DNA from: Candidatus Multivorans sp.
GTDB lineage: Bacteria > Acidobacteriota > Thermoanaerobaculia > Multivoradales > Multivoraceae
Length of the DNA: 64,000 nt
Reading direction: 5' to 3'
Assembly (NCBI GenBank): GCA_965247095.1
Contig: OZ251997.1
Span: 3,328,001 to 3,392,000, forward strand
A program made the translations under genes and the position numbers. Each line of letters opens with the position of its first letter. Position 1 is the stretch's first letter. This document shows, one piece after another, positions 42,998-48,600 of this stretch. The notes below the pieces were generated by a model, which was not told where the DNA came from, did not search any database, and saw only the letters and a program-made list of their open reading frames with translations.

Positions 42998-43948
42998 TCA
43001 GGAGTACGGTTCCAGTTGCGTCAACCGGGTGAGGACCGCGTTGGCGATCTGTGAGCCCACCTCCGCCTCGAAGACGAGAATGTCGCTTTCGGCGCCGTCG
43101 TAGGACTCGCTCCAGAGTACGGTTCCGTCCTCGGCCAGGAGCAGGCGGGCCCAGACCCGGAGGCGATCCTGCTCCCGCTGAACCCGGCCGTCGAGCAGGT
43201 AGTCGGCTGAAAGCCCGTTCGCTCCGCCGCCGGCGCTTGGGAAGGGTCGGGCGTCGTACGCGACGACCGCCAGCCGATCGCCCGCCTGCTGGCCGAGCGA
43301 CGTGATGAGCTCCTGGGCCAGGCCCTGGCGGAACGGCTCGGCGCCGGACCATGTCTCCACCGCCGCGAAGGGCAGGACCGCCAGCACCTGCCGTGACGGT
43401 TCGCTCGCGGTGGATGGTCCGGAGTCCAGCGTGCGCCAGACGAAGATCGTGGCGACGATGCCGAGGGCCGCCCCGAGAGCGGCGAGCACGGCGCCGGGTC
43501 CTGACCGCCAGCGCCGGGCGGTGCCGCCCCTGCTGAGGGTCGGTTCGTCGCCGTCGTTGACGTCGCTGACGGGCTTCAGGAAGCGGTACCCGAGGCGCGG
43601 CAGCGTTTCGATGTACTCGGGTGTGTCGGCGCTGTCGCCAAGTGCGACCCGGATCCGCTTGACACAGGAGTTCATGCTCTGGTCGTACTCGACGTGGACT
43701 TCGTCGGGCCAGAGATGGCGGCGGACGGCCTCGCGCGAGACCACTGCGCCACGGTGCGCGATCAGTAACTCGAGGAGTCGGGCGGGTTGGGGCTGAAGCC
43801 GTACCGTGCGCCCGAGGCCGGAGAGTTCGAGGGTCTCGGGATCGAAGCGGAACTCGCCGAACTTAAGCCGGCGAGGGCGTGCAGGGAAGGTGCGGTCGGG
43901 TTTCGTGCCCAGGCGTCCCTCGTGCGACGAGTCGTTATCGCGCTGCAT
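42998..43948 (-). CDS. Membrane-anchored CadC/ToxR-like regulator (OmpR/PhoB-type wHTH + TM + TolB-like domain)
   Basis: FGEFRFD, LQPQPARLL, ALGDSADTPEYIETLPRLGYRF, TM helix, LAVLPF. Confidence 0.87.
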   Translation of the reverse strand: MQRDNDSSHEGRLGTKPDRTFPARPRRLKFGEFRFDPETLELSGLGRTVRLQPQPARLLELLIAHRGAVVSREAVRRHLWPDEVHVEYDQSMNSCVKRIRVALGDSADTPEYIETLPRLGYRFLKPVSDVNDGDEPTLSRGGTARRWRSGPGAVLAALGAALGIVATIFVWRTLDSGPSTASEPSRQVLAVLPFAAVETWSGAEPFRQGLAQELITSLGQQAGDRLAVVAYDARPFPSAGGGANGLSADYLLDGRVQREQDRLRVWARLLLAEDGTVLWSESYDGAESDILVFEAEVGSQIANAVLTRLTQLEPYS

Positions 43949-44081
43949 GAGCTTGCCCTTGGACTACTGCGAGTGAGCTGTTGTTTGGCGTTTTCCAGCC
44001 CCGAAAGTGGTGTTCCGAATTGGGGACCCTGGTTTTAGAGGACACAAAAGGACACTACGCACGAAGCATTCCGGGCGATGC

Positions 44082-44117
44082 GTGACAGTTGTGTGACCAG
44101 TTCGTGACCCCCGTGAC
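44082..44117 (-). promoter_or_regulatory. Tandem GTCAC direct repeats (Pho-box-like) upstream of the wHTH regulator
   Basis: Plus-strand GTGAC at 44082, 44093, 44104 and 44113 (spacings 11, 11, 9). Confidence 0.5.
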
Positions 44118-44409
44118 CTGCGCCGTCGCTTGCTATGGCAAGCGCGGACCCAAGCCTGGATCACTGTGCGGAGCTACTGGCGCCAGGGGAGCGACGGAGC
44201 GTCAGGTACCGCGATTTCGGCGGTCCGTTGGCTCTGAGGGAACATCGGATGCATCGCGTGTCCGAGTCCTGGCCGGCCCTGGCTTCTCGCGGTGCAACGC
44301 CTGGGCGGGAGCCGAACATTCCGGCCCCGGGCCTCGGCGTGTTTGTCAGGGGACGTAAATCCTTGGCACAGTCGTACTTACGGCGTCGGTGTGCTAGGTT
44401 CTGCGGGCC

Positions 44410-44428
44410 AAAAAAAGAGGATAGGGAC
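44410..44428 (-). terminator. U7 tract directly after the 3' strand of the putative ncRNA closing helix
   Basis: Minus strand reads GUCCCUAUCC-UC-UUUUUUU; A7 at 44410-44416 on plus. Confidence 0.55.
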
Positions 44429-45272
44429 CGCTCCGGGGTTCTCACCCGAACCGACCTTAGGTCTCTCATCCCTCGCTCGCGTTTCCTCAACCCTTCAGCT
44501 TGGCGGGCATCCGGTCGTGGAGCGCTTTGCGCGCCACCGATCCTTCCGTTCAGGCCTGGGCGCCCTCGCCTTGCGGCTCCGGCGGTGGAACCTTGCGGCC
44601 CCTCCAGCCCCGTCCGAGTTTGCCGGGACTCCCCTTCGCCTACCCGTTGCCTTCGGGTCTCCCGCTCCGGCTTGCGCCTTCGCATTCAACCCTCCGGCTC
44701 GGGTGGCCGAAAGGTCCGCGCCGTCGTTCCGCCATGGCCGGTTCCTCGGCTTGCGCCTCCGAACCGATCACTTTGCGGCCCGCCGTCGCGGGGACTCCCT
44801 GCCTCTCTCTCCGCCGACATGGCGCCTTTGGGGGTACTTCGTCGCTCAACTGGTCGGGTCTCACGACGAAGCCCCCGAAGCGTCTGCCGATGAAGCGCTT
44901 CAGTTAGCGATCAGCCTTCCGTTGCTGCCGGGCAACTTCCGACCGTTCGCCCCCCTGAAGCCGCCTCCCTGGTTCAGGCGCCACGAGGCTTGCGCCCCTC
45001 GGTGCCACTCCCGGGGAAGCCTTCGGCTACGGGAGTCACTCGCTAGCTGGAACTCCATGTCGTCGGGGTCGCTCCGGCTTGCGCCTCGGTTTCCCCGGCT
45101 CCAAATGGCTCCTGCCACCGAGCCCGGCTCTCAAGTCGTGACCTTCCTACCCTCGCTCTTCAAGTGCGCCCACCACGCGAACGTGACTTTCGCCCTTCTC
45201 AAGCTCCGATCTGAGGGCCTCGGCTCTTGGACCGGTGGATTGGGTTGCGATCCTTGGTCACAGTCCCTATCC
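44410..45272 (-). ncRNA. Putative large (~855 nt) highly structured non-coding RNA, family unassigned
   Basis: Own promoter, perfect 10-bp end-to-end complementarity (44419-44428 with 45263-45272), U7 tail, four exact GGCGCAAGCC hairpins plus other GNRA/UUCG loops, purine-rich minus strand, no credible ORF. Confidence 0.8.
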
Positions 45273-45279
45273 GCGAAAC

Positions 45280-45309
45280 AACGTATAGGGCGCCTGAAGG
45301 TTGTGTCAA
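45280..45309 (-). promoter_or_regulatory. sigma70-type promoter of the putative large ncRNA
   Basis: TTGACA (45309-45304) - 18 bp - TACGTT (45285-45280); predicted +1 near 45272-45273 coincides with the start of the closing helix. Confidence 0.7.
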
Positions 45310-45492
45310 GGGAAGGGCGGCGGACGGCCTCGGGCCGATGCTTGCGGGAGAGCCTTAACCGATTGAACCTCAGCAACTTGACCCTTGCAACCTTGAATTC
45401 GATCGGGTCGGTGACGGCTGCGGATTTCCTGCGGAATCGGGTGGCTGCCGCAGAAGCCGGCTCGTTTGCTCCCGCTTGCGGGGCGGCGCGGA

Positions 45493-45568
45493 TGGTGCCC
45501 AGGGGCGGATTCGAACCACCGACACCCTGATTTTCAGTCAGGTGCTCTACCGACTGAGCTACCTGGGC
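45493..45568 (-). tRNA. tRNA-Phe (GAA)
   Basis: Reverse complement GCCCAGGTAGCTCAGTCGGTAGAGC...CTGAAAA...GGTTCGAATCC...CTGGGCACCA; upstream TTGACT-N18-TAGAAC (45634-45605). Confidence 0.96.
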
Positions 45569-45671
45569 AAGTCGCGCGCGCCGGCCAGGGCGCTAGAGCA
45601 GCGTGTTCTAACAGGCATGCGGCGAGCCAGTCAATGGAGCGCCGGGTGCAGAACGACTAGAGTAGTGGACC

Positions 45672-48600
45672 ATGCGACAATCCAGAAGCGCCGTCCAGCG
45701 TAGACCTGCTCACCTTCCCGCGGACCGAAGGGGCTTCGGCGCGGGCTCGCGATCGGGCTTCCTGGTCGCCCTTACGGCCGCGTCGATCAGCCTGCTGACG
45801 ATGGGAGTTGAGGCGGCGCAAGGACAGCGCCTGCTGAGCCTGGGCTCTGAACCGGCGGAACCTCCAGTCGCCGAGGCCGCACGCATCGACCCGGTCGCGG
45901 GGCCCGTGACGGTGCAGGTCGATCTCGATCTGGTCCGTTCGGCGCCGTCTCGGCTGGAACTGCCGACTTCAGACGGTCGGGTGCTCGTCGCGGAGCGGAG
46001 CGTCTTCGAGGATCGCGGCAACGGCAACGTGATGTGGGCGGGCAGCTTTCCTGGAGCGGGCTACGAGAGCGTCGTCCTGACGGTGGAGGACGGTAGCTTT
46101 GTGGGGCGGTTCGGCGAACCGGGAGGCGCCAAGTTCCGAATCAGCGCGGATCCGTCAGGTCGCGGCAGGATGGTCGACACCGCGCGCACCGGGTGACGCC
46201 CCGGAGACCTTCTGTCCGGTCGGTCTGGAGCCCGACAGTCTGTCGCGGGTCGGCCCGGTAGAGCCGCGGCGCGTCGACCTGCAGCAGCGGGTGGCGAGTC
46301 CCCAAAGCCACGACCGGCTGGACATCCTGGTGCTTTACACGGCGCAGGCGGCGCGGAACTGGGCGAACCGCGGCGGCGCCGTGGCCTCGATCCGGAACGC
46401 CGGCGACTATCTCAACCTGGTGCTCCGTAACGGCCAGTTGGGAGTCGAAGCGAACATCGTCCACGTCGCCAGAGCGCCCGCTGCTCTCGAGGCCGTGGCC
46501 AGAGATGGTGTTGGCCCGTACGGCGGCAACCTGCTCACGCAACTGCGCTGGAACGGCGACGTCCTTCAACTACGAAGGCAGCACGATGCCGACCTGGTCC
46601 ATCTGTTCACGGGCGAGAGCACGAGACTGCTCCAGTTTTGCGGTTTCGCCTCCTTGCTGCCCCGCGACTGGACGGCTGACCGGTTCTCGCCCTTCGCTCA
46701 CGGCTGGACCACGAACGACTGTTCCGGCGACGATCTAATCTTCGCCCACGAGATCGGCCACGGATTGGGCGCCAACCACGACCCTCCGAATGCCACTCAG
46801 ACTCAGATTGAGCAGGCCGTAACGCCGTACGCATTCGGCCACGCCAACCAAGATCACATACCGAACGTCGGAACGCTCATGAGCTACCGCGGCCAGACGG
46901 AGCCGTACTTCTCGTCCGTGCGGATCAGGCCCAGGCGACGGACGATCGGCGTCGCTGGCGAGCAGGAGAACGAGCGCGCGCTTCGCAGCACCGTGAAGAT
47001 CGGCGTAGGCTACAGCGACGCGATACAGCCGCCGTCGGAGGACGCCCCCGCCGCGCCGACGAACGTTCGCGTCGAGGTAACCGGGGCGACATCAGCTCGC
47101 GTCAGTTGGGACGACAACTCGGACGATGAAGAGGGCTTTCGAGTCTGGGTTGCAGCAGCAGGGTGAACCGATCGCGGTCGGGCGATTGGTTGGCGCCGAC
47201 CAGGAGTCTTTCGAAGTCGATGACCTCGAGCTTGGCTTCAACTTCTTCTGGGTGACTTCGCACATCGGCAGCGCCCGTTCCTGGAGAACCAGCTTCGTGG
47301 ATGCCGTCGTGCCTGGGGCCGAGCCGGCCGCGCCGACGGATTTGAGCGTCACATCGTTCGGAAGCTTCGCGATCGTGACGTGGACCGACAACTCGGACGA
47401 CGAGACCGGCTTCGAAGTCCAGGTTCTGCGCGGGGGCGAACTCTGGTTCCGGGACGCCCTCCCCGCCGGTCAACGGTTCGCCATCGTCACGGGCCTTGAG
47501 CCAGGCGTTCGCTACGTCTATCGGGTGTCCGCGTACGGTAGTGGCGGCTTGTCCTGGAGCGAGAACGTGGCCGTGGTGTCGCCGGAGCGTAGCGGGCCCG
47601 CGCCACCCACGAATCTCCGCGCGACCCTGACCGACGCCACCTCGGTTCGCCTGACCTGGACCGACAACTCGGCCGACGAGGTCGGTTTTCAGGTTCGGGC
47701 CGCCGTCTGGGGTTGGTCCGAGTTCTTCCCGGTTGACGCCGACACGGAATCCATCGAGATTCCCGGGCTGGCCCGAGGCGGTCGCTATTTCTTCAGCGTG
47801 GTGGCCGAGGACGCCGAGGGACTCACCGGGTTGAGTGACACCCTGATCGTCCCGCTCGGTGTGGGCGGCCGGGGACCGCGGGCGCCGAGGCGTCTTCGAG
47901 CGACACCGATCGACCCGGTCTCCGCGCGACTGACGTGGGAGGACGACTCGACGGACGAACTGGGCTTCGAGATCCAGGTCCGGCAGTTCGGCGACTGGGG
48001 GCGAACCGCCCTGGTCGGTGCCAACGAGGAGGCCTTTCTGCTGAGAGGCCTGACGCCCGGGAGCGTCGACGACTACCGCGTCTTCGCGTACAACGACACC
48101 GGATTCTCCGGTGCCAGCAACTCCGTGACCGTGAAACTACGCGGGGGCACCGTCCCCACGGAGTTCACGGCGGCGCCATCGGGCGCCTCTGCAATCGACC
48201 TGAAGTGGTCCGGGAGGTGGGCCCAGAGGTCGCTTGGCCTTGTCTCGGTCGAGGGGCGCAACCCCGAATCCGGCTGGGTTGAACTGGTGACAGCCGAAGC
48301 CGCGGCCGGTTCGGTTCAGGTCACCGGTCTGATGACCGACACCCCCTACACTTTCCGTCTCGCAGCGTTGGCCGGCGGCTCACGGTCGTTCTCCGAGGAA
48401 GCCAGCGCGACCACGGGCGCCTACCGCGACGCCTGCCGTACAGGCGGGCAGTACCTGTGCCTGCGGGATGGCCGCTTCGAGGTGCAGGCGCACTGGACGA
48501 ACCCGGACATAGTGGGTGACTACGGCTTCGGCACCGGGGTTCCCATCGACTTTTCCGACGAATCGGGTCTGTTCTGGTTCTTCGAGCCGAACAACGTGGA

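Follow-up and report, generated by a model that had tools for sequence, protein, structure and literature searches.

We analyzed a 64,000-nucleotide (nt) stretch of DNA from Candidatus Multivorans sp. (Acidobacteriota; Thermoanaerobaculia), positions 3,328,001 to 3,392,000 of contig OZ251997.1 (GenBank assembly GCA_965247095.1), hereafter the window, whose positions are used as coordinates throughout. On its minus strand, from 45272 to ~44412 and between a tRNA-Phe gene and a regulator gene, lies what we read, with a probability of about 0.75, as a stand-alone gene for a large, highly structured noncoding RNA of a new family. That the locus produces a real, expressed and structured RNA belonging to a new family we consider highly probable. 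The RNA gene (44410-45272, minus strand) has a predicted first nucleotide near 45272, a 3' end within a tract of seven U residues (U7) and a length of ~855-863 nt, and is delineated by homologs, fold, base-pair counts and contigs from RNA libraries. The RNA is single copy in the 4.6-Mb, one-contig genome.

The predicted promoter consists of a -35 element, TTGACA (45304-45309, minus strand), and 18 nt past it a -10 element, TACGTT (45280-45285, minus strand), which lies 7 nt ahead of the first paired base. Read on the minus strand, the RNA 5' end, GGAUAGGGAC, starts at 45272, 7 nt past the -10 element. At the other end, GUCCCUAUCC at 44428-44419 is followed by UC and then by U7 at 44416-44410, a presumed intrinsic-terminator tail 2 nt past the closing helix, P1. 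We aligned the 110 nt upstream and the 60 nt downstream of the RNA from 34 loci of the genus. CTTGACA, the spacer length, CCTRTACGTTG and the first RNA nucleotides are kept in 34 of 34 loci; the -35 element itself is invariant in 33, the other locus (L029) being aligned with a 1-nt gap. DNA farther upstream of the promoter cannot be aligned between subgroups. The 3' end GGTCCCTATCCTC and the T-run are likewise found in all 34 loci, and the T-run recurs in a relative from another genus (G051). The promoter is present also in G001 and G066, the two loci without an upstream tRNA-Phe gene. A generic promoter and terminator scan, which requires a local hairpin and a stronger -10 element, gave 0 promoter-like sites and no minus-strand terminator-like site at the RNA locus. 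It lists no promoter because the -10 element fits TATAAT at just 3 of 6 positions, and no terminator because the presumed terminator stem is not a local hairpin. The promoter prediction rests on the conservation seen across the genus loci.

The locus does not behave like a protein-coding gene. Homologs fall into size classes of 626-629, 704-706, 723, 790-809 and 868-876 nt, whose differences are not multiples of three, and substitutions show no three-base periodicity (111, 107 and 120 across the phases in the first 500 alignment columns). The longest open frame in any phase differs widely among homologs, and no frame is conserved. A 412-residue plus-strand frame (44292-45530) covers the whole RNA gene and runs antisense through the tRNA-Phe gene; homologs do not keep it and Pfam gives no match, and it is a G+C-rich artefact that automatic annotation might call. 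Over 44400-45199 the plus strand has a GC skew of -0.17 to -0.19 and an AT skew of -0.25 to -0.34; it is thus short of G and A, and the minus-strand RNA is purine-rich.

Sequence from this region is found in libraries recorded as RNA. Twelve such runs contain part of it; 52-58% of the sampled words were found in each of four size-fractionated metatranscriptomes from a single study, and ~20% in several runs labelled "sponge metagenome". We placed contigs of four runs from three studies on 43700-46000 at a likeness of at least 85%. These metatranscriptome contigs cover 44430-45272, with per-bin word depth up to 3.4x10^3 (run X1), 3.2x10^5 (X2), 1.3x10^2 (X6, 13.5 million letters) and 2.9x10^3 (X11), and carry many allelic differences, as related species should; X2 alone contributes 614 contigs. 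The predicted first nucleotide, 45272, is where one 419-nt contig ends, and others end at 45260-45263; ends within 45260-45272 occur in three studies, one contig there having a loose end of 30 unlike letters. No joints were seen in contigs over the RNA. The flanks (43700-44392, 45317-45470 and 45625-46000) have no contigs except in one X2 bin of depth 22.9, and were used just as a control for DNA carry-over, not for mapping ends or excluding read-through. Over the tRNA-Phe region (45493-45570), contigs are best taken as tRNAs of other organisms, since they continue into sequence unlike the window on both sides; no listed piece links the tRNA to the RNA.

An earlier sequence-only reading of the window had claimed much of this layout, and most of its claims hold at the locus. 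The TTGACA-N18-TACGTT promoter with a start near 45272 at the first base of a helix is present and conserved, the 5' and 3' ends are complementary, and a U7 tract follows the end helix within 2 nt. The purine bias of the minus strand is confirmed by the skews, and the overlapping frames are noise, as that reading had supposed. It had also suggested looking for the transcript in metatranscriptomes, where contigs of three studies now cover the gene and one ends at 45272; the contigs do not give the strand.

Fold and architecture of the RNA

The minus strand (871 nt) folds with a minimum free energy of -426.5 kcal/mol, compared with -382.2 +/- 7.3 for shuffled sequences (z = -6.1; 0 of 20 shuffles as stable), whereas the plus strand reaches -374.5 kcal/mol at z = -2.8. 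A short, 626-nt homolog and the 504-nt G051 relative give z = -6.4 and z = -4.2. A closing helix formed by the first and last nucleotides appears in all three minus-strand folds. We derived a consensus with RNAalifold on the 16 long forms in an alignment (A3) of 35 distinct genus sequences, and counted its pairs on all 35. The resulting model has 278 pairs in 40 helices. Standard pairs occupy 93.9% of 8597 alignment cells, a share that drops to 34.8-44.7% in controls whose 3' partners have been slid along by 1-3 columns. Double changes occur at 44 pairs, against 21.8 +/- 2.7 in shuffles (0 of 500 reach 44) and 13-25 in the slid controls, and the cells that carry them number 141 against 54 in shuffles. 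G-U cells outnumber A-C cells in the model by 908 to 162, an excess that fixes the RNA strand as minus.

Among the best-supported helices are helix 7, where pair 76:122 is CG in 18 sequences and UA in 15; helix 15, in which every cell is paired (100%) and double changes occur at three pairs, 288:342 being CG in 17, UA in 11 and UG in 7; helix 19 (362:402; AU 17, GC 17, CG 1); and helix 37 (811:842; CG 17, AU 5, GC 3). Helix 25 (UA 14, CG 8), helix 28 (CG 15, UA 7) and helix 31 (GC 16, AU 4) belong to the same group. A search by covariation for pseudoknots and kissing pairs returned just runs that are explained by the two-group phylogeny of the genus, and we propose no tertiary pair.

In the model, the two ends of the RNA are brought together in a three-way junction that closes the molecule and is formed by P1, P2 and a 3' hairpin. 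P1 (helix 1) pairs the 5' strand GGAUAGGGACUGU (45260-45272, minus strand) with the 3' strand GCGGUCCCUAUCC (44419-44431, minus strand), which lies ~845 nt downstream and is followed by UC and U7. The strands are exact partners once U-G pairs are allowed, the helix extending to 13 pairs through U-G, G-C and U-G, and all of its cells are paired in the 35 sequences. P2 (helix 2) is contiguous with P1 and pairs GACCAAG (45253-45259, minus strand) with 44453-44461 of the same strand in 99.5% of cells; its GUGAC is common to G051. The 3' hairpin, UUCGGG-UGAGAAC-CCCGGA (helix 40; 44432-44450, minus strand), abuts the 3' strand of P1, has 6 base pairs (bp) and a 7-nt loop, and is 100% paired, with two pairs that vary one-sidedly. 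It is the part recognisable by sequence across two genera and lies within a 42-nt, 88%-identical stretch shared with G051.

From this junction the model extends a 5' domain, four conserved arms, three optional arms (A-C) and a 3' domain, all on the minus strand. The 5' domain (helices 5-9, 45133-45226) ends in a UUCG hairpin with its loop at 45181-45178. The first arm (helices 11-12, 45039-45122) is capped by a GCAA loop (45082-45079) and has ten pairs with double changes, while helix 12 is just 79% paired. The second (helices 15-17, 44963-45020) bears a GCAA loop (44993-44990) that is GAAA in other species. The third (helices 18-20, 44897-44961) carries a 6-nt loop, CCGGCA (44931-44926), which is invariant in alignments A2 and A3 and contains the palindrome CCGG. 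The fourth (helices 21-22, 44809-44895) is a near-invariant long hairpin with the loop CCGACCA (44857-44851); helix 22 is 99.8% paired, and 12 of its 17 pairs never vary. Optional arm A (helices 23-26, 44716-44791; GCAA loop 44754-44751) is present in 24 of the 35 sequences, arm B (helices 27-31, 44632-44714; GCAA loop 44675-44672) in 23, and arm C (helices 32-35, 44546-44617; GCAA loops 44596-44593 and 44574-44571) in 17. The 3' domain (helices 36-38, 44484-44532) has the loop CCGCCAA at 44506-44500.

Differences in length between homologs follow this architecture: insertions and deletions excise exactly whole arms, so that arm edges are indel edges. The arm patterns among the 35 sequences are ABC in 16, none in 10, AB in seven, C alone in one (L007) and A alone in one; L012 lacks arm B alone. 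A 17-nt insertion in helix 12 of L031 (G071; CGCGAACCTTAGGTTCCTT region, A3 columns 230-246) could form a small hairpin and, on the model, would be a further example of the RNA growing by helix addition. GCAA loops cap six of 13 hairpins in the genome of the window (G000), four of them in the identical context GGCGCAAGCC; this 10-mer occurs 39 times on both strands of the 4.6-Mb genome, four of these within the RNA. The loops of other than GNRA type that are invariant in the genus are CCGGCA, CCGACCA and CCGCCAA.

The interior hairpins named by the sequence-only reading stand in part. CACG-UUCG-CGUG and the long helix GGGGGCUUCGUCG...CGACGAAGUACCCCC are in the consensus model, and the GCAA loops that it pointed out number six. 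Its GGGU-GAGA-ACCC hairpin was drawn in the wrong register: variation supports the 6-bp UUCGGG/CCCGGA stem with a 7-nt loop at 44450-44432 (helix 40). The proposed ACUCCCG...CGGGAGU hairpin drops out, lying outside the consensus model and crossing helix 15 with its double changes at three pairs.

Distribution and relation to known RNA families

We searched 57 genomes of the bacterial family for the RNA by blastn and with a covariance model, R1, built from RNA positions 253-447. Homologs of 626-876 nt are present in 36 of 42 genomes of the genus including G000, whose records are titled Candidatus Multivorans or Thermoanaerobaculia. Outside G000, blastn found them in 35 of 41 genus genomes at 69-96% identity, and R1 in the same 35; the sequence-only reading had suggested such a collection. 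R1 had no match in the 15 genomes from other genera of the family. The exact 5' 22-mer occurs in 32 records in a scan of one genome per species, all of them metagenome-assembled genomes (MAGs) titled Candidatus Multivorans, Candidatus Multivoraceae, Thermoanaerobaculia, Holophagales or Acidobacteria(ota). A metagenome scan returned three contigs, all of the long genus form, and viral contigs (searched with two patterns), phage records and plasmid records gave no match. The most divergent genus member is L034/L126 of G066, 723 nt long and 69% identical over the 5' 466 nt; it has another, shorter insert in place of arms A-C and a LolA-like gene rather than tRNA-Phe upstream.

A short blast match led to a relative of ~500 nt in G051, a genome from another genus of the same family (L035, 920-1420). 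It has TTGACA-N17-TAGCCT six nt before its 5' end. Its 5' GUGGGAUCG pairs with its 3' CGAUCCCAC, and the same hairpin, UUCGGGUGAGAACCCCGGA, abuts the 3' strand and is followed by U6. Aligned from the hairpin outward, the P1 pairs are unbroken in G051 through three double changes (C-G to U-A, A-U to U-A and U-A to G-C). The remainder of this RNA is unalignable and again rich in GAAA and GCAA hairpins. G051 escaped R1 because conservation between genera does not extend to the middle of the RNA. We found no synteny between the G051 locus and that of G000; the relative precedes an unrelated open reading frame with a signal-peptide-like start.

With the 3' hairpin as a pattern, 401 genomes of the class gave 18 matches at two mismatches outside the genus; the pattern reversed as a control gave three. 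A T-run follows none of the 18, and several look coding; we take them as chance, although they outnumber the control matches. A 12-mer complement test on these matches did not discriminate and was dropped. Searching 201 genomes of the order by blastn with the G051 RNA returned just the 3' hairpin of genus members and two weak matches (G282 and G435). Short matches in G038 and G041 were taken as chance. From these searches, the RNA family appears confined to one family of sponge-associated Thermoanaerobaculia.

We compared the RNA with the 4227 families of Rfam 15, scanning the window at gathering thresholds, 44000-45700 at E<=10, and the whole genome with selected models at E<=1. At gathering thresholds, the 64-kb window holds three tRNAs and nothing else. 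At E<=10 the sole match inside the RNA over 44000-45700 is to ar45 and scores 14.7 bits where the cut-off is 40; we regard it as noise. Models of RNase P, transfer-messenger RNA (tmRNA), 6S and signal recognition particle (SRP) RNA have no match in 44000-45700 at E<=10, in agreement with the sequence-only reading, which had also seen no intron signature. RNase P RNA (232.6 bits), tmRNA, 6S RNA (71.7 bits) and SRP RNA (60 bits) are encoded elsewhere in the genome, so this RNA replaces no housekeeping RNA. GOLLD (RF02032) has 0 matches genome-wide at E<=1 and none in 44000-45700 at E<=10, which leaves the earlier suggestion of a divergent GOLLD branch without support. ROOL (RF03087) and OLE (RF01071) likewise gave 0 genome-wide matches at E<=1, a weak test for either (14 control genomes gave no ROOL match, and control genomes no OLE match), and none in 44000-45700 at E<=10. 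HEARO, the IscB omega RNA (RF02033), has 0 matches genome-wide at E<=1, and no nuclease or transposase lies among the flanking frames scanned. Group-II-D1D4-1 (RF01998) has 0 genome-wide matches at E<=1, and no group I or II intron matches 44000-45700 at E<=10.

A search of the published literature, including full-text search with the RNA's sequence strings, found no description; the supplementary motif lists of PMC11109978 and PMC5737381, which lay outside that search, could hold one. We rate the family as new because the Rfam tests fail and no literature description was found, in line with the earlier view of an undescribed class. Giant ornate bacterial RNAs as a phenomenon are already known. 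At more than ~500 nt, with many helices that carry compensatory changes and no coding capacity, this RNA is one of the large ornate bacterial noncoding RNAs, a descriptive kind rather than a homologous family.

Three members of that kind are the closest comparisons. In the portion of a preprint consulted here, GOLLD is encoded in phages and prophages near tRNA genes and has a conserved and a variable part, ROOL assembles by kissing loops and A-minor contacts into a cage made of RNA only, and both are often near tRNA islands (bioRxiv 10.1101/2024.12.08.627333). Measured against that partial account, our RNA resembles GOLLD in its ~800-nt size class, many helices, unknown function, adjacency to a tRNA and division into conserved and variable parts. 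It differs in its chromosomal location and single copy, in having no match in the collections of viral, phage and plasmid sequences searched, and in being variable in the middle (arms A-C) with conserved ends. With ROOL, as far as that account goes, it shares large size, ornate structure, proximity to tRNAs and the lack of a known protein partner; the phage or prophage context of ROOL is not seen at this locus. OLE is ~600 nt long, exceptionally highly expressed and part of a ribonucleoprotein, according to the consulted parts of three sources (PMC3413148; PMC12054373; bioRxiv 10.1101/2024.12.08.627333). Like our RNA, which may be highly expressed as well, it is large and chromosomal, but OLE is found in extremophiles and anaerobes of the Bacillota, whereas this RNA is found in Acidobacteriota. 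OLE adjoins the gene of its partner, oapA. No OapA-like partner gene was named among the ten flanking frames scanned with Pfam, a scan that was not a search aimed at oapA.

Two further comparisons concern host range and topology. The smtA motif, also called "Soda Lake RNA", is presented in the consulted part of PMC11109978 as a rare large noncoding RNA of more than 350 nt with covarying stems, found in one genus (Thioalkalivibrio) with the smtA gene. To judge by that part, it is like our RNA in its genus-level host range, large structured form and unknown function; ours is set apart by description, being more than twice as long, without smtA association and seen in RNA libraries. As for topology, both 5' and 3' ends pair in tmRNA and RNase P RNA, and tmRNA lays out an acceptor stem next to a T-arm. 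In topology only, the closing end helix of our RNA is similar, and a 7-nt-loop hairpin abuts its P1 3' strand as the T-arm abuts the tmRNA acceptor. The RNA differs from tmRNA in lacking a CCA end and in having a closing helix of 13 bp.

Proposed role, alternatives and genomic context

Several points weigh against the reading of the locus as a stand-alone gene of a new structured RNA family and set limits on what we propose for its role. The covariation is shallow: the genus sequences form two main groups, and many double changes therefore go back to one event passed on to many rows. The model lacks independence, having been derived from 16 of the counted sequences, and is thereby favoured over the slid controls; a blind covariation search also yields covarying runs outside it, and helices 12, 14, 17 and 28 are paired in merely 79-83% of cells. 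The promoter is a weak consensus match, and it would be unusual for a terminator stem to span 850 nt. Being assembled contigs, the RNA data show neither strand nor true ends, and the levels they give cannot be compared with those of other genes. Six of 42 genus genomes lack the RNA gene (G003, G011, G013, G019, G022 and G059), four of them being single-contig assemblies that keep the flanking tRNA and regulator genes; the RNA is therefore dispensable. One relative outside the genus was found, and it aligns just at the closing junction. A scaffold or assembly role is proposed from analogy and tetraloop content only. Two kinds of evidence, the P1 pairing in G051 and the whole-arm insertions and deletions, are independent of the two-group phylogeny.

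We tentatively propose that the RNA is a trans-acting architectural RNA, acting as a protein scaffold or in an RNA-only assembly; by analogy with other large RNAs this is our first choice, though at somewhat below even odds. By docking on receptors, as happens in other large RNAs, its tetraloop-capped arms would make the particle compact. Termination would be coupled to closure of P1: the 3' strand would find the 5' end, and only complete molecules would be released. Transcript release may depend on P1 in this way because the U-tract follows P1 and there is no local hairpin. In the released RNA the ends would be paired or buried, conferring stability and helping to explain abundance. The invariant junction and 3' hairpin would form the core site, with the arms as an expandable periphery, and the invariant CCGG-containing loop (CCGGCA) is a candidate site of self-pairing. 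The RNA would then act in trans, as a protein scaffold like OLE or in an RNA-only assembly like ROOL and GOLLD. In RNAs of the OLE, ROOL and GOLLD type, kissing loops and A-minor contacts build dimers, octamers and 14-mers, according to the consulted portion of the preprint (bioRxiv 10.1101/2024.12.08.627333). For our RNA, hints of self-association may be seen in the palindromic CCGG of the invariant loop and in the six GCAA loops, and in nothing else.

More broadly, we think it somewhat better than an even bet that with this RNA a new class of giant ornate RNA begins, specific to the sponge-symbiont Ca. Multivoraceae: very abundant in the host-associated state, folding through GCAA-capped arms and perhaps assembling with itself, with an end helix that serves as terminator and completeness check, and in sum a new RNA machine or assembly, be it scaffold, cage or ribozyme, that would play a part in the physiology of the symbiont. 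The probability left over by an architectural role and by the four alternatives weighed below falls to a function of a kind not yet considered.

A new class of large ribozyme is unlikely, though several features of the RNA would suit it. RNase P and the group I and II introns use tetraloop-capped arms to buttress an active site, and an optional periphery around a fixed core is typical of ribozyme families. Here, too, optional arms surround a fixed core, long invariant stretches lie in junctions and in the loops CCGGCA, CCGACCA and CCGCCAA, and by general knowledge the size, helix number and tetraloop content are in the range of large ribozymes; the arms might thus buttress an active site in the invariant core. 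No ribozyme or intron family matches, however, either in the region at E<=10 or, for group-II-D1D4-1, genome-wide; the contigs show no joints; and there is no candidate substrate, flanking exon, maturase or transposase. G051 shares the closing junction only, so a conserved active site is not evident.

The neighbouring genes bear on two other alternatives. The genome's sole tRNA-Phe gene (GAA anticodon; 45493-45568, minus strand) lies 217 nt upstream of the RNA, which makes exact the position downstream of tRNA-Phe that the sequence-only reading had given. Downstream is a gene for a 316-residue regulator (42998-43948, minus strand) that bears a Trans_reg_C winged-helix domain in its N-terminal part (residues 46-123) and has no assignment for its C-terminal half; the gene follows the RNA in all genus loci inspected, including G001, where tRNA-Phe is missing upstream, and G066, which has no tRNA within 415 nt upstream. 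The flanks comprise ychF, aat, the regulator and a protease, with no phage, integrase, maturase or transposase genes among the ten flanking frames scanned.

We consider it quite unlikely that the RNA is a giant cis-acting leader or attenuator, whose terminated form would be the abundant RNA and which would control the regulator by read-through at P1/U7. The regulator does lie downstream on the same strand in G000 and in the two tRNA-less loci, with a terminator-like end between it and the RNA. Yet in all four RNA-less genomes scanned for tRNAs there (G003, G059, G022 and G011), tRNA-Phe and the regulator ortholog (58-75% identity) are still neighbours, ~400-610 nt apart. The region upstream of the regulator aligns over ~410 nt, at 67% identity, between G000 and G003 only; G059 and G022 align over shorter parts and G011 at the tRNA only. 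The U-tract is 455 nt from the regulator start codon, and the G051 relative precedes an unrelated gene without synteny. The RNA also exceeds the size of leaders familiar from general knowledge; we know of none that approaches ~860 nt. A stand-alone gene accounts for its own promoter and U-tract in 34 of 34 loci, for the RNA in loci without the tRNA (G001 and G066) and for the unrelated context in G051, as the sequence-only reading had proposed.

Very unlikely, in our view, is that the RNA is cargo of a small mobile or phage-derived cassette beside a tRNA, a chromosomal cousin of GOLLD and ROOL. The spacing to tRNA-Phe is 185-219 nt in 19 of 20 loci tested, and a segment of ~1.15 kb (~44336-45487) is present in G000 and replaced by 24 nt in G003. 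This segment starts a few nt past the tRNA 3' end and comprises the promoter and the RNA together with the 217-nt spacer ahead of them and, behind them, a conserved tail of 75 nt that contains a palindromic repeat; proximity to tRNA islands is also a frequent trait of ROOL and GOLLD in the consulted preprint text (bioRxiv 10.1101/2024.12.08.627333). On the other side, GOLLD and ROOL models have no match, nothing was found in viral contigs (two patterns) or in phage or plasmid records, the RNA is single copy with no integrase or phage genes in the ten flanking frames, no direct repeats are seen by eye at the G003 junctions, and the distribution follows the genus. These results uphold the non-prophage, chromosomal context described earlier.

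The tail itself, TAGCAC..GTAAGTGCAAC..N..ACTTAC (44336-44409, minus strand; the 75 nt past U7), is kept in 33 of 34 genus loci, the exception being L034 of G066. It is conserved about as well as the RNA and contains the inverted repeat GTAAGT/ACTTAC; G003 lacks both tail and RNA. In plus-strand orientation the tail resembles TTGCAC-N17-TAGGTT with a TGC before the -10 element, a possible promoter pointing into the RNA gene. That the abundant transcript is a plus strand started from this tail, or that the region is coding or a G+C-rich artefact, is highly improbable: contigs cannot tell strand, the tail is promoter-like and a 412-residue frame spans the region, but G-U exceed A-C cells 908 to 162, the fold favours the minus strand (z = -6.1 against -2.8), the U-tract and promoter geometry suit that strand, and the frame runs antisense through a tRNA gene without a Pfam match, with no frame or periodicity kept across homologs.

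Large, intricately folded bacterial RNAs are rare. Those of known function (ribosomal RNAs, RNase P, group I and II introns and tmRNA) do sophisticated biochemistry, and OLE, GOLLD and ROOL, of unknown function, have lately been found to form unprecedented RNA assemblies, as reported in the consulted part of the preprint (bioRxiv 10.1101/2024.12.08.627333). With the family described here, the small group of giant bacterial RNAs of unknown function gains a candidate. The family's members, 630-875 nt long, have defined ends and a conserved core, occur naturally in minimal and expanded forms and show signs of abundance, which makes them a target for cryo-EM, probing and a partner search; the arm variants found in nature (none, A, AB, C and ABC) are built-in deletion mutants. 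If termination does need the 5'-3' closing helix, RNA folding would be coupled to transcript release in an unusual way. The hosts are known only as sponge MAGs, and the RNA may mark a process relevant to symbiosis.

One further observation concerns the insertion site. In G059, which lacks the RNA, the interval between tRNA-Phe and the regulator (L149, ~1000-1160) holds two copies of a ~30-nt repeat, GGTGTCAGGCCCGACATCTGCGACGAG, and a third, partial copy; the site downstream of tRNA-Phe is therefore variable.

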